A DNA stretch of 64,000 bases from Bdellovibrionales bacterium (GCA_041740515.1 JBGSLV010000036.1:4429-68428), one strand, 5' to 3'; positions 10,924-60,829 are shown, counted from the first letter of the stretch. Numbers and translations: made by a program. Notes: generated by a model not told the origin, from the sequence alone.

Positions 10924-13900
10924 TTATGGGCCGTAACACAAGGGTTGATTTCCACCCACCGGGGTCCCAGAAAAGCTTCCTGTGAATTGAAAGTAACCCA
11001 TCCCGACAGAGCACTGAACAGCTCCGTTATTAACAAAATTATGCTGATGTCTGAATTGATAAGTAGAGATGTCAAATATGCCGCTTGAAATATTGAGTAC
11101 TGGAGAATAGGTGCTGGACGATGCTAATCCACCATTTCCAATCAATGAAACTCTATTTGTACTAAGGTTTTTGTTAATCCGTAAACTTACACCACGACTG
11201 CCCATATAACCTGACCCACCAGGTTCAAAATAAAGTTGCGAGTCTGCCCCACCTACTAGATTTATATCCACATCCCTAATTGCACCATAACAATCCTTCG
11301 TAGCGGGGTTCTGACAATGATAATTTATATTTCCGTAGACATTAAAGACAGCAAACGTTGGAAAATCTGATTTTATTGTTCCATTGTGAATGTCCATATC
11401 TCCTTCAATATTTACAATAGAGTCCGAAGTAAATTTAATCGAGTATTCGTCTCCGGTGGGCCCATCATTCAAATCAAGGTCGCCGGCGATATTTAGTGCA
11501 AAGTCGTTAAAAATGATCCCCGGGCCATCTATATCTATAACCATGGCAGACCTATTGTCATTGCTATTTGTAACCGAATCAAACGAAACTAAACCGTTAT
11601 TATGATCAAAGAAGCCTCCAAGATATTCAAAACCAATTGATGAGCTCTCTGTTGCAAAACTCGTATTCGACCCCTCACCAAAGCTTAAATGCTTAGGTGC
11701 TACAAAAGTTCCTTGAATAAGTCGAAACCTTCCTAATCTAAAATATCCAACAGCAGGATTGGTTGCGATCTGATTAACGCCATTAGGATTATCAATGATA
11801 AAACCTGGTGCCGCAGCACCGTCATCAAAAGTGTATGTTTGCGGAGTTCCATCATTTCGATTAAATCGTAAAAACGTATGCGCCCGAATTCCAACAATGG
11901 AAGCCCCACCTGGAATCGCAGATACATTTAGATTTGAACCTAAATCTGAGCATCTATCTGAGGCCGCGATATTGTCACATTCGAAATTCGCATTTAAACC
12001 TTGATATCTAATTTCGCCTTGTAAAAAATGACCGTCTCTCCAGTCCAGATTAGTCGATACATTGATGATTTTATTTGTTCCGTAAATATGTGTGCTAGCT
12101 AAAGCTTTTCTTCCAAAAGTAGTCCCGGTTCCATTGGAATTATTATCAATTATTAAGTTGGCCAAGTTTAATTGTTGGTCCACAGAGAAAGCAAAAACTC
12201 GAACTCCGTTTAAGTTTGTAGAAGAATTGATATGAACAGTCCCGTTATTGTGGTTAAAAACGCCGGTCGCTGAAAGTGTAAAGCCACATTCTCTGGAGTT
12301 CTTCCAGTCCCAAGCAGGTGATCCAGTTTCGCAATTACTATTATTAAAGCTGCTTCCCATAAGCAAAGTGCCGGAAGTCGATGTGAAAGCACCACCGATG
12401 ATATTTAATCGATCGACAGTTAAATTCGCATTCCCACCTTGAAATGTTCCGGCTTCCATTTCCCATTTACCAAAGTTGGGTGCTGATCCTGTAGAGCTAC
12501 GAAGACCAACCTGAAAAGTGACACCAGGATTTTGAGTGATTGTCCCTGAGTAAGTTGGTTTCATATAAACACGCCGAACCTGAGTGTTCGCATTGATATT
12601 GACATTACAATTGCCTGTAACCAGACACTCGTCGTCAAAATATGTGAACGCTGTACTTGGTGGGATTGCATTCACTCTCCAGTTGGACGGCGTGGTCCAA
12701 AGACCATCGCCAGCAGTTCCTAACCATGTATAATCTGGAATAGCTATTCGTAAAAACATCACCCTTTGTATCGTCCCAATCCCATCGGAGATTGTGATAG
12801 TATAATTTTGTCCAACGTCATCACTGACCGTAGGAGTACCTGAAATCAATCCTGTTCCCGCATTTATAGTCAGGCCTGCAGGTAAGGAAGGTGAAATTGA
12901 AAAGTTTGTTGGCGCTCCAGCAACCACCGTCGCTGCCACACCTGCAGAGGGATCATTAAGTGGCGTGTATTTTGGTCCCGTAAATGTCCCAGGATAAGTG
13001 ACATTTAAATTTGTGTAATTGATTGTAATGCCAACTGAGCCTGATGGATTTAAAGCTTGGTCTATTTGATTGACGTTGACTACTTTAACTCCGAATGCTG
13101 CCGTTAAAGTAATTGCTCTTGAGTAAGCACTTGCTACACAAGTTGTAGCGACTGGAGACCCAACAATGTCACCACTGATATTCACCGTCGCCCCCGTTTC
13201 ACAGGCACCAGAAACTGTTTGGCTTACAGATGAAACGGTAAGGTTATTTGTAGGCGCTACAACAGTAGGTGTGCTTGGAGCTATAGTGTCTAAAGTTAAA
13301 CTGATGTTTGTTGCTGATGAAGTATTTCCTGCAGGATCAGTTTGTGTTGCACTAATTGATTTTAATCCTTGCGACGAAATTAATGTTATATTCACAACAG
13401 TATACGAAGACGAGGAACACGGAGCAATGACCGGTGATTCAGAAAAGTCTCCACTGACGTTCACAATAGCACCACTCTCGCAAGAGCCGGTTACACTTTG
13501 AAAAATGGTGTTGGTGAATGAACCGTTAACTGGTGCAGTTATTGTTGGTGCACTTGGTGCAGTTGTGTCTAAGGTGACAGTGATATTTGTGGCTAAAGAC
13601 GTGTTGCCTGCCAAATCGGTTTGTGTGGCACTGATAGCTTTACTGCCTTGGGATGCGGCCAACGTGATCGCTCGTGTATAAGCATTTGCTACGCACGCTG
13701 CTGTGAGTGGTGATCCTGTAAAGTCTCCGGTTAAATTTACAGTCGCGCCCGATTCACAAGATCCTGTTACTGTCTGTGCCGTAGTATTGGTAAGCGATCC
13801 ATTAGCTGGAGTAGTTATGGTGGGTGCTGTTGGTGCTACTGAATCAAAAGTGATATTTATATTTGTAGCCACTGATGTGTTTCCAGATGGATCTGTCTGT

Positions 13901-16419: not shown

Positions 16420-16812
16420 ATTGTATATATCGGAATTGATTAACGTAAAGTTTATTAAACCATTGAAATTTAAAACTATTTTCTTACAAACCCAGTAACG
16501 CAACAATGTAATTTTATTTTCGCCCATCTTAGCCTGAAGTCGCACTTTAATACGTCAAAAACAAAAGAAGAAAACAAGATATCAAAGCTTTTGTCTCATA
16601 TTTATACGTTCTTTTAAATTTACATAAACCTTAGACATCAATCCTTGGTAGATCTAGGTCTTCTAAAGAGTATAAAGCTTGGTTTGAAAAACTACGATAA
16701 ACCGATTATAGTTGGTTTTAGGTAGATGCCTAAACAGTCTCATTTCTATTTTGAAAGTTCAAAGTAGATTCAAAAAAAACTAACCCATTGGTAATTATGG
16801 CTAAACGAAAAA

Positions 16813-17832
16813 ATGCACAAAACCATGTTTAAAGTTGAATATTATAGAGAAGACTGGGTTGAATGTCCTGAACTCGTTTATGCTGTTTTTAATTCAGATT
16901 TTGACAAAGTTCAAAATCTACTTAAAACTGAATCAGTGGACCAACAGGATCAGAAAGGACGATCAGCATTTGAGTGGTCCTTAGAAATATCAATTCAACA
17001 CAATCCACCAATTTTACAAAAAAAAATATTGAGTTTACTTTTAGCCAAAAAGCCCAACCCATTTTTAAATTCGAAATCTGAAGTCGGTTGTTTTGAATAT
17101 ATTTACAAAGGCCATAAAGCTGAAATCACGAAGCTACTTTTAAACTCTTTTGATTCCAAGAATCTACTAAATTTAAAACAAAAATCTGAACTAGCTACTA
17201 AAGCATTACATCGTGGTAACTTTGAAGCTTATCAAGTTTTGATTCAAGCTTGGGGTGTTAAAAATTTATACTCAGCTCCATTTCAGACAACGGACTTACA
17301 TCTCGCCTGCCAATTCGGTTCCTACCTTGCAGCTTCTAAAGCTCTAGATACTATTAATGATGTAAATTTATTAAATGAACTTGGACAAACACCTTTAGAT
17401 CTAATCACGTTAACAAAAAAAGGTAGCCAAAGCGATAAAAAGTTAATCCAAGACTTACTAAAAAAGCAAGGTGGAGTCTTAAATTATTTAACAGCAACTG
17501 AGTATATTGAACTGCCGATATACACAAAAATGAATCATCAAAACTATTTGAATGGAGCTATTAATGTTAAACATCCTAGCACTTGGTTCATTAAAAATAT
17601 TTTCACCCTTTCTGAAACTGAAGCTATCCTAATTATAGAAAGTGAAAAAAATATTGATCAAAAAGATCTTTTGAATGGGACAGCATTATATTGGTCTGTA
17701 TATAAACACTGCTTACAATCAGACAACACCAAAGTCATAAACAAATTACTTGAACGAGGTGCCGATCCAAATATCGTCCACCATTTTATGGGTTCAATTC
17801 AAGACCTAAAAATGCATTTTAATCGATTTTAA
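16813..17832 (+). CDS. ankyrin-repeat protein
   Basis: Ankyrin-like signatures: DQKGRSAFEWSL, TTDLHLACQFGSYLAASKAL, NELGQTPLDL, NGTALYWSV....VINKLLERGADPN. Confidence 0.75.
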   Translation: MHKTMFKVEYYREDWVECPELVYAVFNSDFDKVQNLLKTESVDQQDQKGRSAFEWSLEISIQHNPPILQKKILSLLLAKKPNPFLNSKSEVGCFEYIYKGHKAEITKLLLNSFDSKNLLNLKQKSELATKALHRGNFEAYQVLIQAWGVKNLYSAPFQTTDLHLACQFGSYLAASKALDTINDVNLLNELGQTPLDLITLTKKGSQSDKKLIQDLLKKQGGVLNYLTATEYIELPIYTKMNHQNYLNGAINVKHPSTWFIKNIFTLSETEAILIIESEKNIDQKDLLNGTALYWSVYKHCLQSDNTKVINKLLERGADPNIVHHFMGSIQDLKMHFNRF

Positions 17833-17903: not shown

Positions 17904-18800
17904 TTAGAGGCTATTTAAAAATTGATTAAGCTCGGTCCAGTAGATAGGAAAAGTGGCCAAGTCATCATGGGTACCTTTAGGAATCTTAACCAATGTGATA
18001 TTTTGATTAAGCCCTTTTAGTCTTAAAGCATGATCAATAGGAATCAAAGCGTCTTCTACACCATGAACTATAAAAATAGGCGCTCTGACATCAGAGACTA
18101 TCAAATCCGAACGAAAAGGATATTTGAGTAAAAAAGCTGGAACAAAAGGATATTGCGCGAGAGCTAAGTCCCTTATACTAAAATAAGGAGTTTCAAGAAT
18201 TATAGCGTCTATGGCTTTTTTAAATTTAAACGGAAAATTTAAAGCTTTCGGTGGATTTAAGGGGTCTTCGATTTTTTGACTTTGTTCATAATAATAAGCT
18301 AACCCAAGTGCCAAACCAGAACCTAAGGATCTGCCTAAAACAACAATTTTTTTAAAATCGTAGGCGGAGGCTTCATTCAAAGCATGTCTAGCAATGAGTT
18401 CCAACTGCTCTTGGGATTTAATGTCACCTTCACTTTTACCATACCCAGGGTAATCAATAATGAAGACATCCCAACCTGTTTTTTTAACAAGCTCTACGGC
18501 GCTTAAAGCACACTGGCTAAGCTCACATCCATTGCCATGAAAATATAAAATTAATCCTTTAGGATCTAGAGTTTTAAAATACAAACTATGAATTCTAAGA
18601 TCTTTAACTTGAAAAAATTTTTCTTCAAAAGGGATATCAAAAGAGTAGGCAAAATCTTGGGTCATTTTTTTGGGAAAAAACATAAATTTTTCCTGCAAAA
18701 AATACATCGTAATAAGTAAGGAAAGATACAGAAACAGGAATAAAAAAACTAAATTTTTAAAAAATTTTTTAACTCTCAATCTAAGCTTTTTTAATATCAT
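17904..18800 (-). CDS. membrane-anchored alpha/beta hydrolase (ABHD/BEM46-like serine hydrolase)
   Basis: N-terminal TM helix, HGNG oxyanion motif, nucleophile elbow GRSLGSG, and later VHGVEDALIP and GTHDD. Confidence 0.8.
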   Translation of the reverse strand: MILKKLRLRVKKFFKNLVFLFLFLYLSLLITMYFLQEKFMFFPKKMTQDFAYSFDIPFEEKFFQVKDLRIHSLYFKTLDPKGLILYFHGNGCELSQCALSAVELVKKTGWDVFIIDYPGYGKSEGDIKSQEQLELIARHALNEASAYDFKKIVVLGRSLGSGLALGLAYYYEQSQKIEDPLNPPKALNFPFKFKKAIDAIILETPYFSIRDLALAQYPFVPAFLLKYPFRSDLIVSDVRAPIFIVHGVEDALIPIDHALRLKGLNQNITLVKIPKGTHDDLATFPIYWTELNQFLNSL

Positions 18801-18874: not shown

Positions 18875-21800
18875 TTAAAATACCGCCGCTAACCCTAAGC
18901 TTAAAGCTCGCCCCCGTTGAAAGCTTGATACCACAAAATCCCCTTGTGTGCGCGTCACATCTGGATCTAAAAGATTTTGAGCCCGGAAAGTTAAATTTAA
19001 ATTCTTTTTTATTTTTTGAATAATCGATAGATCTAGCTGATGGATCGGCTGCTCATAAGTATCTGGTCGCCCCCCATCCCCCACATCTGTAATTCGTGGT
19101 CCCACAATGTTATATACCAGGGTCGTATTTAAATTGTACCAGGGCAAAGTTACATCAACACCAAAATTTAATAAGTAGGGGGATTGACCTTGTAGTGGTC
19201 TGGAAAAAGTAGTGGAGTTTCCTTTCTCTTCAGCGGACAAACGAACCTGTGAAGCAATTAACGAATAATTGCTAAAAACTTCGGTATTAAATCCTGCACC
19301 TAAAAATTCCGTGATGTCTTTACGGATTTCAAATTCAATCCCCGAGTTACTGGCTTCACTGATATTTCGATATGATCTTATGGTATCCGTGGAATTGACC
19401 GCGTAAGCTTCAATTGGATTTTCAAAGTTTTTTAGAAATACACCAACTGAAAGTAATTCTTTGGAGGTTGGATACCAATCCCATCTAAAATCAAAGTTAG
19501 TTATCCCGGCGGCAACAAGATCAGGATTTCCTATTTCATAAATGTTGTCGTTATCATTTAAAAATCTTGCCGGTGACAACTCTTTGAAATCTGGCCTTGA
19601 TACTGTTTTGGTAAAACCAAATCTAAGAGAGTGCTTTTGACTTAAAGCAAAATTTAAACCTAATGAAGGCAGAAAATCATCGGTTGCAAGCGCAGTGTTT
19701 ACACTAGATGTTGAAGAGTTTAAATCAAATGTATTCACATTCTGAGTCGAGCGCTCGAGCCTTAGGCCATAAACAAGTTGGGGCTTGAAGTAGTCATAAC
19801 CTGTGGCTGTGTTATACTTAAAATTAAAAGTATTAGAAGCTTGGATATAAAATGCATTTACATCTTGATCGGCCAAATAATTATCCGTTGGTAGTGTTGA
19901 ATCAATTAGTCGAAAACCACCCGGCCTAATATTCTCATCACTTAAGATATCATCAAGGGCGTCTTGCCGATTATAGGCCACTTGCGAGCCCGCAGTAGAA
20001 TCATTCCTAAATTTGAATCTTCGAACGTTAAACTCTCGGTCTTTATTGATATTTTGAAAGCCTAATTTAAGTCCAACATCCATAAAGGCGGTGGCCGAAG
20101 TTTTAAGTCGAGCCTGACTTTCATAAGATATTTTAAAATCATTCAAAACTTCATTCAAAGCCGAAAAGCTTCGCTCATTGCCATACACTTTATCATCAGC
20201 AAACAATAACTGCTCATTGATTTTCAAATAGTAATACTCCCGAAAATCAGGTTCATCTAACTGCGCTTGGCTGTTAGTAAAACCCCATGTTAACTTAGGG
20301 CCTTTATCAGATGATGTAAATTTATGAACTCCTGAAATCTGCATGGTATTAAGTTCACGCTCTTGCCATCTTAGTCGATAAATATTTGCTGTATCGTCAA
20401 TATTATTTCTGCCATCTCGCTCTATGGCGACTGTCGAATTTAAACTAGAACGGGTAATTACTTGGGTCGCATTGATTTGATGGTTTTTAAAAATCTCTAA
20501 GCCTAAGCCAAAAATGCCACCAAAATTGATAGTATTTTCTGTCTGAGTATTATTGTCTTCAAGTCCAACAACCCCTTCACTTTGAGTCACCATGTCGACC
20601 CTTCGCTGCAAAATCAAATCTGTATCAGTGGCATTGGCATAGGCGAGCTTAGCTGTCCCACCAATTTTAAAAATATTTCCGCGCTTAAACCTATCCCCCA
20701 TTTCAAAGTTCATTCCAAAATTAGCCGGCAGCGAAGCTTCTTTGACATTATAATTTCGAGAAAAACTTTGACCTAAAGCTTCAATCTCTTCGCCCGTAAA
20801 ACCACTGCCATCATTCACTGCAAAAGGATTGTCATCCACAAGATTGTTGATATCTCGGTTTTGCTTTAAAACCGATTTCACAGCCTCTGGTAAGCCTCGA
20901 ATATTATTTTGATCATACCCCGTCCAATCGGAATTTGAATTGGCATGAAATAATCCACGCTCCTTTCCTGTTAATACGTCTTCGGAACTTACGCCTACAT
21001 TCACACTCATACGAGCAAAGGCCTGGTCAGGGATGGATTTGGTCGTAATGTTCACCACCCCGCCCCCAAACTCTGACAACTGATCAGCACTATAGGTTTT
21101 TTGTACTTCGATACTTTCTATGAGTGCAGACGGAAACATATCTAAGGGCACAACTCGTCTTGAAGGATCAGGGCTTGGCAACATACTTCCATTTAATAAT
21201 GTGGACGAGTACCGCTCCCCTAAGCCCCGAACATAAATATATTTTCCATCAACTAAACTTAAACCCGTCACACGCCTTAGAGCTGAAGCCGCACTGCTAT
21301 CCCCCGATTTTGCCATTTGCTCTGAACCTAAAAGATCTTTCACTGACATGGATGACTTTCGTTGATTTAACATCGAAGACACACTGCCCTTAACATGAGG
21401 TGCAATAACGGTAATTTGGTCCAAAGCAATTCCTGAAGGTTGAAGAGCCAATTCAAGTTTTGGATACTTTAAAGGCCAAGGAACTGATTCCGACCATGTC
21501 ACATAAGAGGCATGTACAACGGCCATTTCAATAACATTTTTAGTTAAATTAGATGAATTAAAACTAAGAACAAATTCACCTTGGTCATTTGTAATTGCTG
21601 TTAAATTTAAACTTGGAACTAAAACGTTAGCATTATTTATAGGTCGAAAGGATTCTTTATCCACAACTCGACCTTGAATTTTTGCATCGGTAGAATTTAA
21701 AGCTTTAATTTCGGTATTACTTGCAACGGCATTTTGAGGAAAATTTGAACCCGTACTTTCGGCATCTATAGAAGCCCTATTTAATGCTGAATATTTTGAT

Positions 21801-22435
21801 GCGTTTGAAGAGCTGCTCAAATTCATGACCGAAGGGTCAATTGAGTCTTCGGATTGAGAATTTGCAATTAAGGTTTTTGGGTGCTCGACTTGGACATTAA
21901 ATTCGTAGTCATCAAATGAAACTATGACTTGAGTTTCATTTTGGGCATAAACTGAAAATTTAACATTTCTAGTCAACTTATCTTTAAATTTATATTTTAA
22001 AACGTAAGACCCTTCCTGAAGTTGAGTGGTAAAAACTCCTTCATCAAGAACTTGATGAACCAAGATATCTTCATTTTCTTCTCGCTTTAGTGAAGTTACA
22101 GTTCCACTATCTTTAGATAGATCTTCGATTGATTCTGGATTCACCGGGGCTGATTTTACGGGTAAGATTTTAATATCGATATTTGAAGCCAAGTTATTGA
22201 ATTTAAAAAAATACAAAGTGATGGAACCAGATTTAGAGGGCTTAATTGGCTTTATTGAAGTCTTGGGATTTTGTAAGGAAGGATGGCTTCCTAAAAGATT
22301 TACGGCCAAAGAAAATTCGGGGGACTTCGATAGTGTATCTGCTAAAATTCTGGGGCTTATAGTAACCATACAACAAAAACTAATCCATGAAGTGAGGACT
22401 AATTGTCTTACACAGTAATTCAGCTTTAAGTTCAT
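18875..22435 (-). CDS. TonB-dependent receptor with a long N-terminal extension (beta-sandwich plus carboxypeptidase-regulatory-like domain)
   Basis: Plug region: LLGSEQMAKSGDSSAASALRRVTGLSLVDGKYIYVRGLGERYSSTLLNGSMLPSPDPSRRVVPLDMFPSALIESIEVQKTYSADQLSEFGGGVVNITTKS. CarbopepD_reg-like IQGRVVDKESFRPINNANVLVP...TNDQGEF. C-terminal barrel ends in ...AAVF. Start set to ATG 22435, which forms an ATGA overlap with the upstream stop. Confidence 0.9.
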   Translation of the reverse strand: MNLKLNYCVRQLVLTSWISFCCMVTISPRILADTLSKSPEFSLAVNLLGSHPSLQNPKTSIKPIKPSKSGSITLYFFKFNNLASNIDIKILPVKSAPVNPESIEDLSKDSGTVTSLKREENEDILVHQVLDEGVFTTQLQEGSYVLKYKFKDKLTRNVKFSVYAQNETQVIVSFDDYEFNVQVEHPKTLIANSQSEDSIDPSVMNLSSSSNASKYSALNRASIDAESTGSNFPQNAVASNTEIKALNSTDAKIQGRVVDKESFRPINNANVLVPSLNLTAITNDQGEFVLSFNSSNLTKNVIEMAVVHASYVTWSESVPWPLKYPKLELALQPSGIALDQITVIAPHVKGSVSSMLNQRKSSMSVKDLLGSEQMAKSGDSSAASALRRVTGLSLVDGKYIYVRGLGERYSSTLLNGSMLPSPDPSRRVVPLDMFPSALIESIEVQKTYSADQLSEFGGGVVNITTKSIPDQAFARMSVNVGVSSEDVLTGKERGLFHANSNSDWTGYDQNNIRGLPEAVKSVLKQNRDINNLVDDNPFAVNDGSGFTGEEIEALGQSFSRNYNVKEASLPANFGMNFEMGDRFKRGNIFKIGGTAKLAYANATDTDLILQRRVDMVTQSEGVVGLEDNNTQTENTINFGGIFGLGLEIFKNHQINATQVITRSSLNSTVAIERDGRNNIDDTANIYRLRWQERELNTMQISGVHKFTSSDKGPKLTWGFTNSQAQLDEPDFREYYYLKINEQLLFADDKVYGNERSFSALNEVLNDFKISYESQARLKTSATAFMDVGLKLGFQNINKDREFNVRRFKFRNDSTAGSQVAYNRQDALDDILSDENIRPGGFRLIDSTLPTDNYLADQDVNAFYIQASNTFNFKYNTATGYDYFKPQLVYGLRLERSTQNVNTFDLNSSTSSVNTALATDDFLPSLGLNFALSQKHSLRFGFTKTVSRPDFKELSPARFLNDNDNIYEIGNPDLVAAGITNFDFRWDWYPTSKELLSVGVFLKNFENPIEAYAVNSTDTIRSYRNISEASNSGIEFEIRKDITEFLGAGFNTEVFSNYSLIASQVRLSAEEKGNSTTFSRPLQGQSPYLLNFGVDVTLPWYNLNTTLVYNIVGPRITDVGDGGRPDTYEQPIHQLDLSIIQKIKKNLNLTFRAQNLLDPDVTRTQGDFVVSSFQRGRALSLGLAAVF

Positions 22436-23643
22436 ATCAAACACTTCCAAGATCCATCTTCTGCACATTCTTGAGACCAGTCTTTGAGCTTGAGAGCTTT
22501 TTTAAACATTTCTGGCGTTTTAATTTGCTGCAAATATTGTTTAGCCTTTGTTACTTTACCAATTTTTACAGCACAGTAAGCCAAAGCATAAATTAGGGAC
22601 TCATCTTCGAGTAAACCTTGACGGTTCAATTCATCTTTTAAAAAATAGGCTTCGTGAAAATTTGCAGCTTTTATTTCTAAGGCGAATCTTTGTTTAGTTT
22701 TTTTCTTGGCATCAAGTACTTTCGAGTTAAAATATTTAGCTAAAACAAGATCATTGTTTTTAAGCAAAACCTCGGCGGCTTGATAAGCGTATTTGGCATC
22801 TAAATTCGCAGCTCGTAAATACAAATCTTTTGCGGGATAAAGGCTATTTTGAGCATAATATATATACGCCAATTCCGAAGTTATATCGGCATTTAGAGGA
22901 TTAACTGCAAGTTCAGCTTCAAGAAGTTTTTTTGCAAGATGTAATTCATTTTTTTGTTTTAAGAGATTAACTAAAAACAAAAAGTATGTCTGATCAAAAT
23001 CTTTAGTAGCAGATATTAAGCTTTGGCCTTCAAGATAAAGTTCATGCAATAGCCCAAGATCGGCAAAGTACAAAGCTTTTTGTTTGATGAGATTTGAACT
23101 TCTTGGGAACTTTTGTAAAGCTCGGCTTAATATATCAAAAGCCTTATCTTGTTTTTTTAAACCCCAATAACTACTACTTAAAATCAAGTAGGATTTTTCC
23201 GTTCGATTTTTTTGTAACCTTAACGCTGAAATAGCACTTTCAAATTCATTAAGTGCAAAGTGCGATTGCGCCATAAAAGTTGCTATGGGTGTTTGATAGT
23301 CAACTTCGCCGGTGGGGTTTATAAATTTTAATTTTTTTTCAGCCTGCCTGTAATACTCTAAAGCTTTCACATATTTTTTACTTTCAAAAGCCAACATGCC
23401 TTGATAAAAATAATATCGAACCTGATCCAATGGATTTAAATGAGCAAGATTTATAGACTTAAATAAAGTTTTAGCTTTTTTAAATTCAGAATTTTTTATC
23501 AACACTTCGATAGAATTAACTTCGATTGATGGTTTTAAATCAGTCTGAACAGATGGACTTTTTATCTTAGCCAAAACTTCAAATGGTGTAATAAATCCAA
23601 GGATGAACCAAAGCAGCATCACATAACTAAAAATAGCTTTCAT
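22432..23643 (-). CDS. periplasmic TPR-repeat protein (TtpD-like position in the TonB2-type operon)
   Basis: Signal peptide plus multiple TPR-like A..YY..G / A...Y..A helices. Sits immediately after tonB. Confidence 0.7.
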   Translation of the reverse strand: MKAIFSYVMLLWFILGFITPFEVLAKIKSPSVQTDLKPSIEVNSIEVLIKNSEFKKAKTLFKSINLAHLNPLDQVRYYFYQGMLAFESKKYVKALEYYRQAEKKLKFINPTGEVDYQTPIATFMAQSHFALNEFESAISALRLQKNRTEKSYLILSSSYWGLKKQDKAFDILSRALQKFPRSSNLIKQKALYFADLGLLHELYLEGQSLISATKDFDQTYFLFLVNLLKQKNELHLAKKLLEAELAVNPLNADITSELAYIYYAQNSLYPAKDLYLRAANLDAKYAYQAAEVLLKNNDLVLAKYFNSKVLDAKKKTKQRFALEIKAANFHEAYFLKDELNRQGLLEDESLIYALAYCAVKIGKVTKAKQYLQQIKTPEMFKKALKLKDWSQECAEDGSWKCLI

Positions 23644-23670
23644 AAGTTTTTAGTTCTCCTAATCATTCAA

Positions 23671-24312
23671 CTACTCAAGTGCAAAATTAATGGTTTGATT
23701 CAACCAAACGGCAACCTTTTTACCTTTGTACTCTGCGGGTTGAAAGCGCCATTGACTGACACTGGCTTGAGCTGCGGCTTCAAAGACACCCTTGGGACTA
23801 GCTTTCAGTATATTAACTTTTTCAACTTGACCTAACTCACTGACCAATAAACTGACTTCGACAAAACCTTGAATGCCTTTCTCTGCGGCTGAAGCCGGAT
23901 AATTAAGTTCAGGCTGAGTTAAAGATTTTGGCAAAACATCAACGGCTTGAGCCGACATCACGCCGTCATTAGCGCCATTAAGCAATGCTTGACCTGCACT
24001 TAAATCCAATTCAAGGGAAGGTAAGCCAAATGAAAATCCCTCTAGCACTTGATCTAGCTCTGGGCTTAGGTCAGAGCTTTTTTTTGGTTCTGTCGAGGCC
24101 TTAGGTTGTTCTTGCGCTTGTTTTTTTTCTAAAACTTCAAATCGAGTCGTCGATTTTGCAGCATAATTTTTATTAAACGATTTTTTTTGGTTTAAGTACT
24201 GCAGCAAGGCTAAAATTAAAAACGTACATACTAAGCCAAATAGTGTGGCTTGCAGATAAATTTTAGTTGTAGGTTTAACATGATTAAAAATCATTATATC
24301 CTTAAGCTCCAA
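23671..24312 (-). CDS. tonB: TonB-family energy transducer
   Basis: N-terminal TM anchor, a K/P/E/Q-rich linker, and a C-terminal TonB fold motif YPASAAEKGIQGFVEVSLLVSELGQVEKVNILKASPKGVFEAAAQASVSQWRFQP. An alternative start at 24294 avoids the 11-nt overlap with exbD. Confidence 0.85.
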   Translation of the reverse strand: MELKDIMIFNHVKPTTKIYLQATLFGLVCTFLILALLQYLNQKKSFNKNYAAKSTTRFEVLEKKQAQEQPKASTEPKKSSDLSPELDQVLEGFSFGLPSLELDLSAGQALLNGANDGVMSAQAVDVLPKSLTQPELNYPASAAEKGIQGFVEVSLLVSELGQVEKVNILKASPKGVFEAAAQASVSQWRFQPAEYKGKKVAVWLNQTINFALE

Positions 24313-24715
24313 ACTCTTGATCTGTGGCTACACCAATATCTTTAGCACCAGCCAAACGACACTGATCAACCACTTCAATTAAAAGCTCTGACTCCACACT
24401 TTTATCAACCAAAACTAAAATAGGACTGTTTTTGTCTTCTTTTAAGGCTTCACGAATTCGACTCTGAATCATCCAAGCTTTGACGGCTTCACCATTTACA
24501 TAAATGTTTTTAAGAGGATCAATAGTGACACGAATAGATTTTGTGTCGGCGCTTTCGGCACTTGAAGCTCCTGGTCGGTCTAAGTCAATTTTCATATCTT
24601 TAACAAATGTCGTGCTGACCATAAAAAAGATTAATAAAATAAAAACCATATCCACTAAAGATGTGACATCGACAGAATCCGTACTCTCTTCAACCCTTTG
24701 TCTTGATCGTTTCAT
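24302..24715 (-). CDS. exbD: ExbD/TolR-family biopolymer transport protein
   Basis: 137 aa with VDVTSLVDMVFILLIFFMVSTTF, a single TM helix and a periplasmic domain. Confidence 0.9.
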   Translation of the reverse strand: MKRSRQRVEESTDSVDVTSLVDMVFILLIFFMVSTTFVKDMKIDLDRPGASSAESADTKSIRVTIDPLKNIYVNGEAVKAWMIQSRIREALKEDKNSPILVLVDKSVESELLIEVVDQCRLAGAKDIGVATDQEFGA

Positions 24716-24757
24716 ATTCTAATCCTTTAAAAAAGAATTTTACTTAAAAACTAGTAT

Positions 24758-25213
24758 TTAAGTTTTGGATATTCCTTGGATAATGGGTGGAAAAGCTAAC
24801 TTATTTATGCGGGTTTCAATAAATTTACTAAATAATAAACCTGGAGCTGAAATCACCAATCCCATCTGTGTGGTAAATAGAGCTTTAGAGATTCCTGAAG
24901 CTATGCCTCCAGACTGACTGTATAACTGCATTGATCCCATGGAATCAAAAGTTTCAATCATTCCGGAAACAGTTCCTAACAAACCCAAAAGTGGAGCCAC
25001 CATCAATAAACTTTTAATCAGTGAGGTGTATTGATCTTGATGGGTTTGATATAGCCTTTGATCTTCATAATCAAAGGTGTGAGATTTAATTTGATGATTA
25101 AAATATTGGTATAGACAAAATCGAAAGCCTAAACAAAACCACAGGATTAGAGCCGCTAGACCTAAGGGCCACATCACCCAACCCCCATCTATAAAAAAAT
25201 CTATGAAAAACAT
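24758..25213 (-). CDS. exbB: short MotA/TolQ/ExbB-family proton channel subunit
   Basis: 151 aa, 3 TM helices, with PLLGLLGTVSGMIETF and ISKALFTTQMGLVISAP motifs. Confidence 0.85.
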   Translation of the reverse strand: MFFIDFFIDGGWVMWPLGLAALILWFCLGFRFCLYQYFNHQIKSHTFDYEDQRLYQTHQDQYTSLIKSLLMVAPLLGLLGTVSGMIETFDSMGSMQLYSQSGGIASGISKALFTTQMGLVISAPGLLFSKFIETRINKLAFPPIIQGISKT

Positions 25214-25216
25214 TTT

Positions 25217-26584
25217 CTAAGACTCCGAAGTTGTGGCATCAAAAATTTCAAATAAATTTCTTGAAATTCGTTTAGCCCAAGAGTTCAACCAGTTGCCTAA
25301 AAGCAAACAAGGTATTGCTACTATCAAACCAAACTCTGTTGTTACTAAAGCTTCAGAAATTCCACCAGATAGCATCTTCGGATTACCTGTTCCAATCTCG
25401 GTGATGACATCAAAGGTTGCAATCATACCAGTCACTGTTCCCAGCAAACCTAACAGCGGACCTACGGCTGCGATTCCCAGTAGCACCGGAGCATAAGCCA
25501 TAATTTTTTGATCTAAAGAAAGAATCAATGTCTCAGCTTCAATTTTGGCATTTTTAATATTTAAATATTTAAGTTCAGCATACAAAGGGCCAAGAGCAGG
25601 ATGCTGTTCCCATTTTTTGGCAATCTCTTGGCTGTTGTCTTTGGTGCTATTTTTAGCATTTATGGCTTTTATAAACTCACTCTTTATCTCATCATCAAAG
25701 TTGTATTTTCTTAATATAAAAAATCTTTTAACAGCCACTACTAAGCCAAATAGCCCAAAGATAATGATGACGTACCCAATCAATCCACCCGCATTTAAAA
25801 CATCATTCAAACTTTTTTCTAGTTTAGCTTCAAAGGGTTTATTGATAGAGTCATAAATAAAAAACTTTTGTGAATCTTGAGGCTGACTCACTAAAGGATC
25901 AAAAGGCTTCGTGGTTTCCACCACTTTAAGGTGGCCCAAACCGGCCGGAGCCAAAAGTCCCATGCCACTGGTTGTATTGCCATTATCAGTGTGATTTACG
26001 GCCATTGATGAGATTAAGCCAAACTGTAAAACATCAGCAGATATTTTTTTTCCTTTTATATCAAAGATATCCATACTTACTTTCTGCACTGAGTCCGTAG
26101 TTGCTAGTAAACTTTCGGCTTCCATAAATGCTTGCTTTAAGACTTCTACTTTACTAGCTCCAGATTCAGAACCTGTGATTGTATATCCATAGCTTTTTAA
26201 AGTTTCCGTAGTTTGCTGAGCCAAAGCTTGTAATTTTCGATCTTCAGATTCTGACTTTTCAATCAACTGTTGATACGTCTGATAAGCGGCAAGCTGATTT
26301 TCGGTTTTTGCTTCTAATGAAGATAGCTCTGCCAGCTGACGAACGACTTTGGATTCAAGTTCTTTGATGGAAGATTTTAGCTCGTTAATTGTTTGTTCTT
26401 TAGCTTTCAATAAATTATTTTTTTGCGTGTTTAAATAAATATACTCCCGCTGGTAAGCTTCTTGCAATTTAATATCAGAAGCTTGGGCCGATAAATTTGT
26501 CAGCCAAGGCAAAAAGAAAATAAACCCAAAGTTTTTTAAATCTTTGAGCCCACAAACAAATAATTTAAATTTAGGCCTGATCAT
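25217..26584 (-). CDS. long MotA/TolQ/ExbB-family protein with a periplasmic coiled-coil N-domain (TtpC-like)
   Basis: 455 aa: signal peptide, about 250 aa of periplasmic coiled coil, then a C-terminal ExbB module (GPLLGLLGTVTGMIATF, ISEALVTTEFGLIVAIP). Size and position match TtpC of Vibrio TonB2 systems. Confidence 0.8.
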   Translation of the reverse strand: MIRPKFKLFVCGLKDLKNFGFIFFLPWLTNLSAQASDIKLQEAYQREYIYLNTQKNNLLKAKEQTINELKSSIKELESKVVRQLAELSSLEAKTENQLAAYQTYQQLIEKSESEDRKLQALAQQTTETLKSYGYTITGSESGASKVEVLKQAFMEAESLLATTDSVQKVSMDIFDIKGKKISADVLQFGLISSMAVNHTDNGNTTSGMGLLAPAGLGHLKVVETTKPFDPLVSQPQDSQKFFIYDSINKPFEAKLEKSLNDVLNAGGLIGYVIIIFGLFGLVVAVKRFFILRKYNFDDEIKSEFIKAINAKNSTKDNSQEIAKKWEQHPALGPLYAELKYLNIKNAKIEAETLILSLDQKIMAYAPVLLGIAAVGPLLGLLGTVTGMIATFDVITEIGTGNPKMLSGGISEALVTTEFGLIVAIPCLLLGNWLNSWAKRISRNLFEIFDATTSES

Positions 26585-27374
26585 TTTTTTCTCCCCTTTT
26601 TACATTTTGCTTAGGATTGGGTGTGCTGGATTTAATTGGAATTTTGGGAAATTCAAAATAGCCTGTTCGTATTTGTTTTTTTAAGCTTGAAAAAAAACTT
26701 TCAATGAGAAGACTTGATTGCGAATTCGGCAAAATTTTGGGCGTCCAGCCTTCAGGACTTAAGTGGATATATCCAAGCTCGCCGTTGGACAGTTTGTAAA
26801 ACATCATTAGCATTCCCACTTTAGCCACTTCAACAAGTGTGGGCTGACCGGCTAAATCAATAACATCTTTATCTATACTGATATCTTTTGCCAGTTGGAT
26901 TTCGTCTTCGACATGTGACCACAATAATTGCAAAGTTTTTTCTGGAGTATTTTTAGTTTGTAAAAAATCATTTTTTATCTGTTCAAGGGACTGTAAGCGC
27001 TCTGTTCTCTTGAATGGTAAGGATTTCTTAAGCCTTGCCGTTTCGAAATCCATAAATTGAGCTATAATTTTGTCAAATTCTGGATTTTTAAGGTCTTTTA
27101 AATTTTTGGCTTTCGCAATTTTGTCATTAATGGCATTTAGTTGCAGGTTTTGACGACGTAGCTTTGAATCTAAATCCATTTTTTCTAAAGCTAATGTTTG
27201 AATTTTTGCTTTTAGAAGTTCTTTTTCAGTTTTAAAATCATCACTTAAAGCGCCGACTTCATCACGAAGCTGCATGATTTTGGTTGCGAAGTCTGTTGAT
27301 GAAAAGGCATAAAATGGAATGTATAATACTAATACTATTAAACAGAGATACCAAAACTTTATCATCAGACACAT
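26571..27374 (-). CDS. DUF3450-like periplasmic coiled-coil protein (TtpB-like position)
   Basis: 267 aa with an N-terminal signal/anchor and a long coiled coil. First gene of the operon; overlaps the next gene by 14 nt. Confidence 0.6.
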   Translation of the reverse strand: MCLMIKFWYLCLIVLVLYIPFYAFSSTDFATKIMQLRDEVGALSDDFKTEKELLKAKIQTLALEKMDLDSKLRRQNLQLNAINDKIAKAKNLKDLKNPEFDKIIAQFMDFETARLKKSLPFKRTERLQSLEQIKNDFLQTKNTPEKTLQLLWSHVEDEIQLAKDISIDKDVIDLAGQPTLVEVAKVGMLMMFYKLSNGELGYIHLSPEGWTPKILPNSQSSLLIESFFSSLKKQIRTGYFEFPKIPIKSSTPNPKQNVKRGEKNDQA

Positions 27375-27410
27375 CCTTATAAATAAAAAAATTAAAACTG
27401 AACTTAAAAA

Positions 27411-27442
27411 AGCACCTGCATTTTTTAAAAGATGCAGGTGCT
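27411..27442 (-). terminator. rho-independent terminator downstream of the 440-aa gene
   Basis: 11-bp stem AGCACCTGCAT / ATGCAGGTGCT with a 10-nt loop. On the minus strand the stem is followed by TTTTTT. Confidence 0.7.
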
Positions 27443-27492
27443 TGAAGTCATAAGCTTTAGGATTGAAGAATAACCAACTGATCCTTTAAAAT

Positions 27493-28815
27493 TTAGTTTT
27501 GGGCCGAAGTTGTCCAACCTTCAAACCAAAGATCAGAAGCGTCTTTAACAGCTCCGACATAATCCGTTGGTATGATGGCCGCACTAAACTGCGGTACTAC
27601 TAAATTTTGAAGTTGTATTGGGTTTATAGCTGCAAATCCAGACATTGCTACGCTAAACCCAACTTTATTGCCAGCTTGTGCTGTAAACCAGTCTTGAAGT
27701 AACCATGGCTCGTCTTTTTCTAAAGGCGTAACATCTTGAGCACAAGATACATACACATTTTCAAATACGATTCCAGGTTGACGATTATTTTCGCTACTAC
27801 CTTCTAAAGCATTTCTAAATGTTTCATTGTCATCGATATCAATGCAAGAACTTTTAAAACCACTCACGATTGAATTATAGATGTAAGCGCCTGTGCCTTT
27901 TCGTAATAAAATTCCTGAACCACCAGTAGCTGTAGCACCAGTTGTGCCTAACAAAGTCATATTCGATAATGTTGGAGCCGAACGAGGCATTCTATCCATT
28001 GGTGAATCTGAATTGTCTGCTTCAATTCCATGATTGGCAGCATCGTCAAACTGTTTAATAATTACAAACTGCGCACTACCTTTCCAGCCAGCAACCCAGT
28101 CCATCGAATCATCTTTGATGCCCGTTAACACTAAATGTTTAACATTTACATTGCCGCCGTAGAATTCAACGCCATCATCAGAGTTCATGTGAACTTGAAC
28201 AAAGTCTACTAAAGTTCCACGACCAACGCCTTGAAAGGAAATACCATTTAATTCGTTGTCAGGAGTTATTTCAGAACCAGCCCATTCTACAACCACAAAA
28301 TTTAAGACACCACTGCTATCGTCTTCAAGTGGTCCACCATAATTTCCAGTAGAGCCTTCACCTGATAATTCACAAATTCCTACATCACAGCCATTAACTG
28401 GTGCATTGCCATTGATTATTAAACCACCCCAAGATCCACGAGCTCTATTGGTTTGTTTGGCAGCTGTAAAGACAACGGGTTCTGTTTTAGTTCCTTGAGC
28501 CATAATTTGCGCGCCACGATCAATGACTAAAAAATCTTTAGTTGTTTGACCGTAAACTTTGGTACCTTTTTCTATTGTTAATTTTACTTTGGACTCAGAT
28601 GAGTCTGTGATCATTTTGTTAGAACCCACAAAAACGCCACCGGACAAAATCCAATTTTTCGAACTGTCTAAAGTTAAATCGGTAGTGATATTTCCTGCTA
28701 GTACACAAGAGTCTTTACCAAAAGCTTTTGGACCAGATGTTGTACCTGTAGGACACACAGCAAATGCTGCACTTCCAAGTGTTAATGATAATAAAATGGC
28801 TATTTTAGAATACAT
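27493..28815 (-). CDS. secreted protein of unknown function, probably beta-helical (440 aa)
   Basis: Signal peptide MYSKIAILLSLTLGSAAFA. Repetitive G/N/D-rich strands (GGLIINGNAPVNGC, NGISFQGVGRGTLVDFVQVHMNSDDGVEFYGGNVNVKHLVLTGIKDDSMDW). Strong G-rich RBS. Confidence 0.7.
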   Translation of the reverse strand: MYSKIAILLSLTLGSAAFAVCPTGTTSGPKAFGKDSCVLAGNITTDLTLDSSKNWILSGGVFVGSNKMITDSSESKVKLTIEKGTKVYGQTTKDFLVIDRGAQIMAQGTKTEPVVFTAAKQTNRARGSWGGLIINGNAPVNGCDVGICELSGEGSTGNYGGPLEDDSSGVLNFVVVEWAGSEITPDNELNGISFQGVGRGTLVDFVQVHMNSDDGVEFYGGNVNVKHLVLTGIKDDSMDWVAGWKGSAQFVIIKQFDDAANHGIEADNSDSPMDRMPRSAPTLSNMTLLGTTGATATGGSGILLRKGTGAYIYNSIVSGFKSSCIDIDDNETFRNALEGSSENNRQPGIVFENVYVSCAQDVTPLEKDEPWLLQDWFTAQAGNKVGFSVAMSGFAAINPIQLQNLVVPQFSAAIIPTDYVGAVKDASDLWFEGWTTSAQN

Positions 28816-29058
28816 AATCCCCCCGTGAGATATTCATTAATTATTAAATTTTGTTCTTACGGGCTTGAAGTTAATTGAGACTTGGTTTTTTAGTCATGTT
28901 AAGAAAGGGTCAACCGAGTTTCTTAACAACTTCTTAATTTTTGTTTTAAATTTTGACTAGATCTTAACGCTTAATCTTGTTTTATAAGATTTGATTTAAA
29001 ATCTGAAATGACACAAGCATTAAAAGTTTATTTTTTGTAAAGATGGATTTTAAAAAAA

Positions 29059-29084
29059 AAGCCACATGTTTGAACATGTGGCTT
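29059..29084 (-). terminator. rho-independent terminator downstream of 29235..29879
   Basis: AAGCCACATGTT / AACATGTGGCTT inverted repeat, followed on the minus strand by a 9-T run. Confidence 0.7.
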
Positions 29085-29234: not shown

Positions 29235-29879
29235 CTAGTAAGGATTGTGAGAGTAAAATTGCACGCCATCAATCCATTGGTCATGTCCACCACCATCAAA
29301 ATCAGAGAACATTAACCAAACATTCACATTATTGAAACAAGAAAGATTTACCCACAGGTCTTCTATGAATGGTCCGTCTTCGTCAGTGCCCATAGGTACT
29401 TCGACATAGTTAAAAAGATCTTGATCCGCTGTAAATTCGGCACCATTAAATCTAACAGTAAAAAATCCTTCAGCTCCGTAATTTAGATATTCAATGAAAT
29501 CACCAGCTTTAAACGATCTTCTTACTTCATCAAAATTTTCAGTTTCAAAATTATAATCACTGGTAATGTAAACAAAATCATTTTTTACAGGCAATTCAAC
29601 AATTTTTGACATGGAAATGTAAGTTGCAGCTGGTAAAGCTCGTCCAGGAGCATAGCGGTTTCGCTTTAACACGCACTCGACAGTAGGTGTTTCTTCTTTA
29701 TTTACCGAAGTTCGACCTAAAATCTTTACACCTTTTTTGTAAACTTGAAATCCTGGTGGATATTCTCCGGGCCATCCCATCGATTTGTGCCATGAAGAGT
29801 CGTAAGCCATAGCTGTGTTTGCAATCGAAAAAAAAGCTGTTGCTAATACTAGATTTAATAAAATTGATTTGTGTTTCAT
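29235..29879 (-). CDS. secreted protein of unknown function (214 aa)
   Basis: Signal peptide MKHKSILLNLVLATAFFSIANTAMA; GGGGG-type RBS. Confidence 0.65.
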   Translation of the reverse strand: MKHKSILLNLVLATAFFSIANTAMAYDSSWHKSMGWPGEYPPGFQVYKKGVKILGRTSVNKEETPTVECVLKRNRYAPGRALPAATYISMSKIVELPVKNDFVYITSDYNFETENFDEVRRSFKAGDFIEYLNYGAEGFFTVRFNGAEFTADQDLFNYVEVPMGTDEDGPFIEDLWVNLSCFNNVNVWLMFSDFDGGGHDQWIDGVQFYSHNPY

Positions 29880-51350: not shown

Positions 51351-51392
51351 CCAAACACGTTCCAGAATAACTTCCTTAATAGTAAATTTTTT

Positions 51393-54671: not shown

Positions 54672-54729
54672 ATTTTAAATTGCAAATTCCTATTTCATAG
54701 TAAAAAGTTAAACCCTCAACAGTTAAAAT

Positions 54730-60591: not shown

Positions 60592-60829
60592 CTTTACTCT
60601 CCCGCTTACGTACAAATTCTTTAACAAAATTGAACAGATATTTATCGTCATGTTATATAAAGTCCTGCAGATTCTAAGAGGACATAAGTGTTTCAATTTA
60701 AGAATAGACTAAATTTTAAGACCAAAGTTCAGAAAACAAATCTTAAGATTAGGTTAAAGGATAAATCTTCATCACTCATCCAACGTAGTGGATTTAAGTG
60801 TATCAAAATAAGAATTTATTATGTTCTGA

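Follow-up and report, generated by a model that had tools for sequence, protein, structure and literature searches.

A minus-strand locus of a Bdellovibrionales bacterium probably encodes a self-contained TonB-dependent transport machine in which a receptor is paired with a secreted beta-helix protein

We analysed a 64,000-nucleotide (nt) stretch of DNA from a Bdellovibrionales bacterium (GCA_041740515.1 JBGSLV010000036.1:4429-68428), which in its whole length is called the window below, and in particular a set of co-oriented genes on its minus strand that encode a TonB-dependent receptor, a six-gene Ton motor and a secreted beta-helix protein. The locus is probably an eight-gene, self-contained TonB-dependent outer-membrane transport machine, with a receptor from an uncharacterised clade of TonB-dependent receptors (TBDRs). 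Across genomes the conserved core is the pair formed by the beta-helix protein and the receptor, and the motor is variably linked to it. The most likely role of the machine would be the scavenging of phosphorus-containing nutrients, which we propose tentatively, as this is the least certain step and is reached by orthology only.

Seven co-oriented ORFs (open reading frames) were found on the minus strand at 18875-27374 by ORF listing and translation. An earlier note on this DNA had described them as a complete Vibrio-type TonB2 module of six genes fused to its own receptor, and the ORFs and Pfam assignments agree with it gene by gene, hidden Markov models (HMMs) supporting DUF3450, MotA_ExbB, ExbD, TonB_C, TPR, CarbopepD_reg_2 and Plug. 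The span it gave is accurate for these seven genes but leaves out the promoter region and a conserved eighth gene at 27493-28815, and once this beta-helix gene is counted the unit consists of eight genes. From its 5' end they are:

27493-28815, minus strand: secreted right-handed parallel beta-helix protein of 440 amino acids (aa), PF28492 Beta_helix_4, first gene of the unit
26571-27374, minus strand: TtpB-like DUF3450 protein (PF11932, E = 1.8e-16, 60.6 bits against a cut-off of 32.6), with a hydrophobic N-terminus that is a signal or an anchor
25217-26584, minus strand: TtpC-like long ExbB of 455 aa, MotA_ExbB (PF01618) being confined to residues 354-443
24758-25213, minus strand: short ExbB of 151 aa (PF01618, E = 2.6e-20), with three hydrophobic segments
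24302-24715, minus strand: ExbD (PF02472, E = 6.6e-26, 91 bits), with one transmembrane segment
23671-24312, minus strand: TonB of 213 aa, with PF03544 TonB_C at the C-terminus (76 bits) and one transmembrane segment at residues 18-36
22432-23643, minus strand: TtpD-like TPR protein of 403 aa, with multiple TPR families in Pfam, an N-terminal signal or anchor and a conserved C-terminal cysteine pair
18875-22435, minus strand: TonB-dependent receptor of 1186 aa (PF13715, PF07715 and PF00593)

The seven motor and receptor genes are tightly packed, with a largest gap of 42 nt and overlaps at three junctions: 14 nt between the DUF3450 and long ExbB genes, 11 nt, and an ATGA at 22432-22435. The last had also been reported earlier, and it is indeed where the TPR stop codon (TGA, 22432-22434) overlaps the receptor start codon (ATG, 22433-22435). 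The co-oriented order TtpB-TtpC-ExbB-ExbD-TonB-TtpD is present by ORF listing and Pfam, and both this layout and the translationally coupled receptor that follows it are confirmed. A hydropathy scan of the long ExbB gave a hydrophobic N-terminus, about 230 non-hydrophobic residues and hydrophobic segments at 267-285, 367-391 and 409-430, which is the TtpC architecture of a periplasmic N-terminal extension followed by three C-terminal segments of the MotA_ExbB type. The periplasmic coiled coil that the earlier note read from its sequence is a putative one. The description of the motor as Vibrio-type does not hold further than this architecture. The short ExbB reaches 40.9 bits with the ExbB2 equivalog model TIGR02805, well under the cut-off of 135.35, and the ExbD reaches 40.3 bits with the ExbD2 equivalog model TIGR02804 (cut-off 123.45) and scores higher with TolR. 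The motor therefore resembles Vibrio TonB2/TonB3 in architecture, not at the equivalog level.

The protein encoded by the first gene has a signal peptide, no general lipobox, conserved cysteines and a ladder of invariant acidic, His and Trp residues (D213/D214, D235/D236, E265/D267, H209 and W240), and is predicted by AlphaFold2 to be a right-handed parallel beta-helix with a predicted local distance difference test (pLDDT) score of 93. The ORF of the window is without a match in the Pfam version scanned, and PF28492 is borne by its counterparts in six of six related loci; on Pfam match and fold together the protein belongs to the Beta_helix_4 family. This family is large, with 4197 clusters at 50% identity (E <= 1e-30), many of which carry 2-6 tandem copies of the domain, and it includes giants of 1500-2400 aa (P0241, P0250, P0311 and P0330) built from 5-6 tandem copies of the whole 400-aa domain. 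Among the relatives listed all source names are 'hypothetical protein', one metaclust entry being blank, while two relatives from plasmid records are labelled 'Ig-like domain-containing protein' and 'cell shape-determining protein MreB'. A sequence search of the PDB with the beta-helix profile matched no chain, and for this reason an identity as a B12 binder of the BtuH type is disfavoured.

To place the unit in a wider context we turned to related loci, numbered L001 onwards. The loci of six receptor homologues (33-64% identity), which come from a Pseudobdellovibrionaceae metagenome-assembled genome (MAG), two other Bdellovibrionota-like contigs, Marinicella, a Xanthomonadales MAG and a 9.3-Mb genome, all contain the same seven genes, with a PF28492 gene directly upstream in each of the six. 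All eight genes are syntenic also in L090, and synteny of the receptor with the module is found in every related locus checked, so that neither of the outcomes named in the earlier note as refuting it was observed. The beta-helix alignment was then scanned against one genome per species, and from the relatives obtained, at least 578 in number, 80 loci were retained; their six-frame ORFs were scored with HMMs for the eight proteins, built from the window and L001-L006. The beta-helix/receptor pair occurs in three layouts and in more than eight phyla. In layout A, which is that of the window, the beta-helix gene is followed by the six motor genes and the receptor gene; it comprises 11 complete loci together with partial contigs and two permutations (L079 and L067), and its hosts are Bdellovibrionota, 'Deltaproteobacteria' MAGs, Myxococcota, Planctomycetota, Methylothermaceae, Wenzhouxiangella and Lysobacterales. 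Layout B has the beta-helix gene directly adjacent to the receptor gene that follows it, without such a motor (40 loci of Gamma- and Alphaproteobacteria), and in layout C the receptor gene precedes the beta-helix gene (14 loci of Poribacteria and Acidobacteriota).

The two genes are adjacent in about 70 of the 80 sampled genomes, and homologues of the receptor number in the thousands. It is thus the pair that is the conserved core, with a motor that is variably linked. The family is widespread, conserved and so far without experimental characterisation, and the locus of the window is one of its ordinary members. Between phyla the identity of the beta-helix protein is 41-69%, against 28-52% for the long ExbB, and the alignments of the TPR and DUF3450 proteins are weakly conserved. 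Two judgements of the earlier note need revision here. A motor-plus-receptor operon is not unusual, because layout A recurs across phyla, and receptor-linked Ton clusters had already been published; nor is a six-gene module fused to a receptor the complete unit, given the eighth member and the fact that the evolutionarily constant pair is that of beta-helix protein and receptor. A search of the literature on TonB with DUF3450, TtpC and beta-helix found no description of this pairing.

Some loci add detail to the relation between pair and motor. A six-gene motor that is more Vibrio-like stands before or after a layout B pair in the Alteromonadales loci L047, L052, L056, L076 and L080, and beside such a pair in an annotated Pseudoalteromonas replicon; a Parabacteroides replicon bears a pair that is receptor/beta-helix-like. 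L002 contains a second, canonical ExbB-ExbD-TonB cluster (21699-23102) about 8.6 kb 3' of the receptor gene, and carriers would therefore have a general Ton system besides the dedicated one. In L001 (1-3428) and L089 (993-4982), the two closest relatives with upstream sequence, genes for a Peptidase_S9 and a Na+/H+ exchanger lie 5' of the unit. The upstream neighbours in the window are different, and the unit has therefore moved as a block.

The receptor carries PF07715 and PF00593 and has a 22-strand barrel and a C-terminal aromatic residue (F), as is expected of a TBDR. In its AlphaFold2 model the plug and barrel come after two all-beta domains, here called N1 and N2, and a flexible stretch:

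21884-22231, minus strand: N1 beta domain, residues 69-184, eight strands, pLDDT about 80-89 (AlphaFold2)
21692-21877, minus strand: disordered low-complexity linker, residues 187-248 (AlphaFold2)
21437-21688, minus strand: N2, the CarbopepD_reg_2 domain, residues 250-331, pLDDT 81-94 (Pfam and AlphaFold2)
21398-21421, minus strand: putative TonB box DQITVIAP, residues 339-346, so named from its TonB-box character, in a low-confidence stretch between N2 and the plug
about 20936-21388, minus strand: plug
about 18878-20758, minus strand: 22-strand barrel, with the C-terminus ...AAVF

N2 matches CarbopepD_reg_2 (PF13715) with 34 bits against a cut-off of 32.2. For N1 the support is the AlphaFold2 model, and a Pfam search of the first 262 residues at E <= 1 gave no family for it. 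Over its whole length the receptor matches TIGR01782 TonB-Xanth-Caul with 223.5 bits, under the cut-off of 310. Foldseek returned only generic TBDR structures (E = 1e-25), of which the nearest solved ones are siderophore and haem receptors, and the receptor profile matched PDB entries, including RagA and 9gbc, only via N2. The beta-sandwich and carboxypeptidase-regulatory-like domain that had been read from the sequence alone are therefore borne out by the model, as N1 and N2. They had, however, been counted as about 330 extra residues and are instead features of the family, N1 in its motor-linked members: in the alignment both are also present in the layout A homologues, and the only parts specific to the clade of the window are an insert of about 25 aa in N1 and the low-complexity linker of about 60 aa.

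How far N1 and N2 extend through the family follows from the position at which each receptor begins to match the receptor HMM. In layout A the match begins at position 2-22, and so includes N1 and N2, in 12 of 14 loci of the genome scan; the exceptions are L033 (start 86, probably an ORF miscall) and L020 (start 139), which is also without the short ExbB and ExbD. Five further layout A loci (L002-L006) show N1 in the alignment. The match begins at 180-238 in the 40 layout B loci, which have neither domain, and at 115-134 in the 14 layout C loci, which have N2 only. Judged from these matches, N1 is found only where a dedicated motor is present and N2 is a feature of the family. From this co-occurrence alone we infer that N1 may couple the receptor to its dedicated motor, and the obvious candidate for its partner would be the TPR protein of the periplasm, encoded in most layout A loci by a gene in translational coupling with the receptor gene.

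A pointer to function comes from the layouts without the six-gene motor of the window. A Pfam census of 139 ORFs flanking layout B and C loci gave as its top families OmpR-type response regulators (10) and the PhoR sensor domain (6), with GspD (7), GspC (5), Ppx/GppA (2) and, in Poribacteria, a UgpC/MalK-like ATPase (4) among the others. PhoB and PhoR score above the NCBIfam equivalog cut-offs in L011 and L028, and a phmmer search placed phoB, alone or together with phoR, next to the pair in 16 gammaproteobacterial loci. It does so in at least three arrangements: downstream of the receptor gene, divergent from the beta-helix gene, or upstream on the same strand (Glaciecola and Alteromonas). 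We also scanned for the Pho box CTGTCAT-N4-CTGTCAT, using 608 other upstream regions of the same loci as controls. At 11/14 or better it was found upstream of 32 of 78 beta-helix genes and in 45/608 controls (Fisher p = 1.3e-13), and at 12/14 or better in 12/78 and 19/608 (p = 5e-5); in layout A only, 7/16 upstream regions reached 11/14 against the same 45/608 (p = 1.2e-4), although the loci are phylogenetically non-independent and all these p-values overstate the evidence. Boxes close to the consensus occur in L030 (CTGTCATAAAACAGTCAT) and L080 (TGGTCATAAAACTGTCAT), and a phoU gene adjoins the receptor gene in the layout A locus L006.

A phosphorus role is proposed for the window because the orthologous gammaproteobacterial pair is embedded in the Pho regulon. 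The closest beta-helix relatives outside Bdellovibrionota (43-47% identity) include those of the phoBR-linked loci L011, L012, L013 and L065, and the role is therefore transferred to the window, with modest confidence.

Other neighbours of the pair were noted in the same flanks. In L050, from Poribacteria, the gene just 5' of the receptor/beta-helix pair encodes a UgpC-like ABC ATPase (sn-glycerol-3-phosphate type), which with 424 bits stays below the cut-off of 432. L055, L073 and L078 have ORFs similar in size in this place, and these probably account for the three remaining OB_MalK/TOBE_2 matches of the census. In the alphaproteobacterial loci L017, L022, L027, L048, L062, L068 and L075, ORFs of about 300 and 650 aa stand directly 3' of the pair. 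The 139 flanking ORFs include five matches to T2SSC and seven to GspD, which are placed in Alphaproteobacteria by ORF size and position, and this would suggest that the long alphaproteobacterial beta-helix proteins are substrates of type II secretion. The Pho-regulated island of Pseudomonas aeruginosa likewise combines a dedicated type II secretion system and secreted proteins, both phosphatase and beta-helical, with exbB2-exbD2-tonB-like genes.

The non-coding parts of the unit contain three elements:

29059-29084, minus strand: intrinsic terminator of the preceding gene and upstream boundary of the unit, an 11-pair stem with a T-run (-16.2 kcal/mol, z = -5.6)
28892-28937, minus strand: conserved promoter-proximal block, ending 77 nt upstream of the beta-helix ATG
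27406-27443, minus strand: terminator-like hairpin with a T-run between the beta-helix and DUF3450 genes (-22 kcal/mol, z = -4.5)

The promoter-proximal block is conserved in the alignment with the three closest loci (L089, L090 and L001). It contains the direct repeats TTAAGAA-N4-TTAAGAA (28937-28920), a TTGACC (28913-28908) and TTCTTAACATGACT (28905-28892). Within it GTTAAGAA and TTCTTAAC, separated by a spacer of 14 nt, make up a palindrome (9-N14-9-like), which in L090 is kept by a symmetric change (GTTAGGAA/TTCCTAAC). The motif occurs once in the window and otherwise only in the closest relatives, and the block is probably the binding site of a regulator. Tandem repeats with a period of 11 bp are typical of sites for regulators of the OmpR/PhoB family. 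A Fur box had been reported as absent, and a scan of the upstream region with the 19-mer consensus agrees, the best match of 12/19 being at chance level (110 positions of the window score exactly 12 and 133 score at least 12). The hairpin is conserved with compensatory changes in L089 (GCACCTATGT/ACATAGGTGC), L090 and L001, and when the 118 nt that separate the beta-helix and DUF3450 genes were scanned, nothing resembling a sigma-70 site was flagged on the minus strand. For these two reasons motor and receptor are probably expressed by partial read-through, and the hairpin is probably an attenuator that would give more beta-helix protein than motor and receptor.

Directly 5' of the unit lies a gene for a 214-aa protein with a signal peptide (29235-29879, minus strand), which is followed by its own strong terminator and for which no Pfam or NCBIfam family was found. 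It is also present in the identical Logan contig L091, and not in more distant relatives.

Taken together these elements can be arranged into a scheme. A promoter with a regulator site conserved in the clade would drive expression of the secreted beta-helix protein, and the conserved hairpin would attenuate transcription into the seven downstream genes, which would supply the dedicated inner-membrane motor and the receptor. The beta-helix protein may bind or cleave a polymeric substrate, either outside the cell or in the periplasm, and the receptor may import the product with energy that the dedicated TonB supplies through the TonB box. N1 would most likely dock the receptor to accessory proteins of the motor, the TPR protein and/or the DUF3450 protein. 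A more far-reaching version, in which the pair is an undescribed and widespread phosphate-starvation system that imports a phosphorus-rich polymer (polyphosphate, teichoic-acid-like or nucleic-acid-derived) and N1 docks to TtpD/TtpB, is rather unlikely.

Systems comparable to this locus have been studied as Ton systems with and without a dedicated receptor. TonB3 of V. vulnificus (VV0250-VV0244; PMC5554404) comprises a receptor, TtpB3, TtpC3, ExbB3, ExbD3, TonB3 and TtpD3, and so agrees with the window in its six motor genes, in their order and in having a receptor in the operon; it is not iron-regulated and does not serve siderophores (PMC6957404, PMC5554404). The receptor gene is the first of that operon (PMC6957404), which is under Lrp and CRP control, whereas here the receptor gene is last and the beta-helix gene first. 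Vibrio TonB2 shares the gene order, the DUF3450 protein, the long ExbB with its periplasmic N-domain and the TPR protein, and in V. vulnificus all six proteins are needed for function (PMC6957404). Unlike the unit of the window, which has no Fur box and whose ExbB and ExbD score well under the ExbB2 and ExbD2 cut-offs, it is Fur-regulated and serves many siderophore receptors, with no dedicated receptor in V. vulnificus. In V. parahaemolyticus the receptor gene peuA is in an operon, and co-transcribed, with a TonB2-type motor (PMC4141801), but PeuA is a ferric-enterobactin receptor encoded upstream of the motor, under PeuRS two-component control and with no beta-helix partner.

Two further systems can be compared. 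Myxococcus has three clusters of a TonB-dependent transporter with Ton genes (PMC6434023), and Oar of M. xanthus is a TBDR with a CarboxypepD_reg extension whose gene lies next to its own ExbB, ExbD and TonB genes (PMC6434023). Its motor has four genes (tonB1, exbB1, exbD1 and exbD2), with no DUF3450 protein, long ExbB or TPR protein reported; Oar works in secretion, and its N-terminal extension is dispensable. The SusCD/RagAB systems of Bacteroidota have a CarbopepD_reg_2 extension before the TonB box and one obligatory extracytoplasmic partner encoded next to the receptor. In SusC/RagA the extension is essential, and a role in specificity for TonB paralogues has been proposed, not shown (PMC7782687). 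The partner there is the TPR-like lipoprotein lid SusD/RagB, whereas here it is a beta-helix protein, and no lipoprotein of the SusD/RagB family is present in the window or related loci; the receptor of the window moreover has N1 as an additional domain and shares its operon with a dedicated motor.

Several points weigh against the explanation proposed here. The 64-kb window contains no PhoB or PhoR homologue and no consensus Pho box, the best site scoring 10/14 and the promoter-proximal block only 8-9/14; the homologous block of L001 scores 11/14. A Pfam census of the layout A flanks found no recurrent neighbour, Pho genes included, and no inner-membrane transporter or phosphatase is consistently linked to the pair. 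The Pho box of six loci is situated between the beta-helix gene and a divergent phoB, and could serve phoB alone, and the non-independence of the loci has been noted above. Read-through of the hairpin is something we infer, and docking of N1 to the motor has co-occurrence as its only basis. Finally, the beta-helix protein matches known folds only generically, at about 10% identity, and the matches favour carbohydrate-active enzymes, with NosD tying for the top.

This last point leads to glycan uptake, in which the beta-helix protein would be a polysaccharide lyase, hydrolase or epimerase and the receptor would import oligosaccharides, as in the carbohydrate-utilisation loci of proteobacteria. 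The fold matches and the similarity to TIGR01782 agree with it, but the latter is under its cut-off, the fold matches reach an identity of only about 10%, the joint top match NosD is not an enzyme, and the recurrent neighbours of the pair are Pho regulators. The top 25 families of the flank censuses hold no recurrent glycoside hydrolase, sugar kinase or sugar transporter, with the UgpC/MalK-like ATPase of four Poribacteria loci as an exception, and we regard glycan uptake as somewhat unlikely. Uptake of peptides or proteins for a proteolytic or predatory lifestyle, as an analogue of RagAB, is quite improbable. N2 matches the N-terminal domain of RagA, but it is a generic domain; some Bdellovibrionota loci have peptidase genes in their flanks (S9 in L001 and L089, S8 in L002, trypsin in L003), but these are not recurrent in the flank censuses, and predators encode many peptidases anyway. 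The Shewanella TBDR SO_1822, which presumably adjoins a TonB2 cluster, may offer an analogy. It is needed on gelatin and was called a peptide-uptake gene (PMC3658271), and the control of V. vulnificus TonB3 by Lrp and CRP (PMC6957404, PMC5554404) would also be in keeping with peptides.

Transport in the opposite direction is more improbable still. Oar, a TBDR that is extended N-terminally by CarboxypepD_reg and has a Ton system next to it, is required for secretion of PopC in Myxococcus (PMC6434023), and a receptor with its own motor could similarly secrete the beta-helix protein across the outer membrane, since that protein carries a Sec signal peptide, lacks a general lipobox and is always encoded beside the receptor. 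Oar is, however, a single case; the type II secretion genes (GspC and GspD) beside the pair in alphaproteobacterial loci suggest another export route, and the relatives of the beta-helix protein include many multi-domain giants (900-2400 aa), an unlikely cargo for a plugged barrel. We give least credence to a TonB2 system for iron or siderophores that has a siderophore receptor of its own, as in Vibrio, which is highly improbable even though the six-gene architecture is that of Vibrio TonB2, essential for siderophore uptake (PMC6957404), and the generic TBDR fold has siderophore and haem receptors as its nearest solved structures. The receptor shares 10-14% identity with solved siderophore receptors, has no PDB sequence match outside N2 and has a much larger barrel; no genes for siderophore biosynthesis, ABC transporters or periplasmic binding proteins are linked to it; there is no Fur box, and ExbB and ExbD fall short of the ExbB2/ExbD2 equivalog models. 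The receptor-linked relative, Vibrio TonB3, is moreover not involved in iron transport (PMC6957404). Import of a phosphorus-containing nutrient remains the reading we prefer.

Elsewhere in the window, whose best hits and G+C content of 36% indicate a probable origin in Bdellovibrionota, an alpha/beta hydrolase gene (17904-18800, minus strand) begins 74 nt 3' of the receptor gene, with no convincing terminator between them. It was rejected as a member of the unit since it is not syntenic in other loci, and may be co-transcribed with the unit here by accident of position. An ankyrin-repeat protein of 339 aa is encoded on the plus strand at 16813-17832, a repeat that is uncommon in bacteria. At 10924-16545 on the minus strand lies the gene for a 1873-aa protein of bacterial Ig-like repeats (ten Big_6, with Big_13 and Glucodextran_B), in a stretch whose G+C content is clearly higher (0.44-0.45 against about 0.36 around it). 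Three consecutive giant ORFs of 2295, 1092 and 1988 aa at 44463-60696 (minus strand), with fn3, 12 FG-GAP repeats, NHL and Big_1, look like a large surface or adhesin gene cluster.

What is new from the comparison is the beta-helix/receptor pairing, the co-occurrence of N1 with the motor and the link to the Pho regulon. The mechanism of TtpB, TtpC and TtpD lacks an explanation, as do the N-terminal extensions of the SusC and Oar type, which are essential or conserved, and Vibrio TonB3 has been without an assigned function for more than a decade. The family described here joins a dedicated motor, an extra receptor domain found only together with the motor and an uncharacterised secreted beta-helix partner, and, judged by its gammaproteobacterial members, the inducing condition would be phosphate starvation. 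If the far-reaching version given above is true, it would give a first mechanistic role to TtpD/TtpB and to N-terminal extensions of TBDRs, and a testable function to systems of the TonB3 type. With culturable carriers in Rheinheimera, Alteromonas, Pseudoalteromonas and Marinicella, this family of loci may reveal a route for phosphorus in marine, soil, sponge-symbiont and predatory bacteria.

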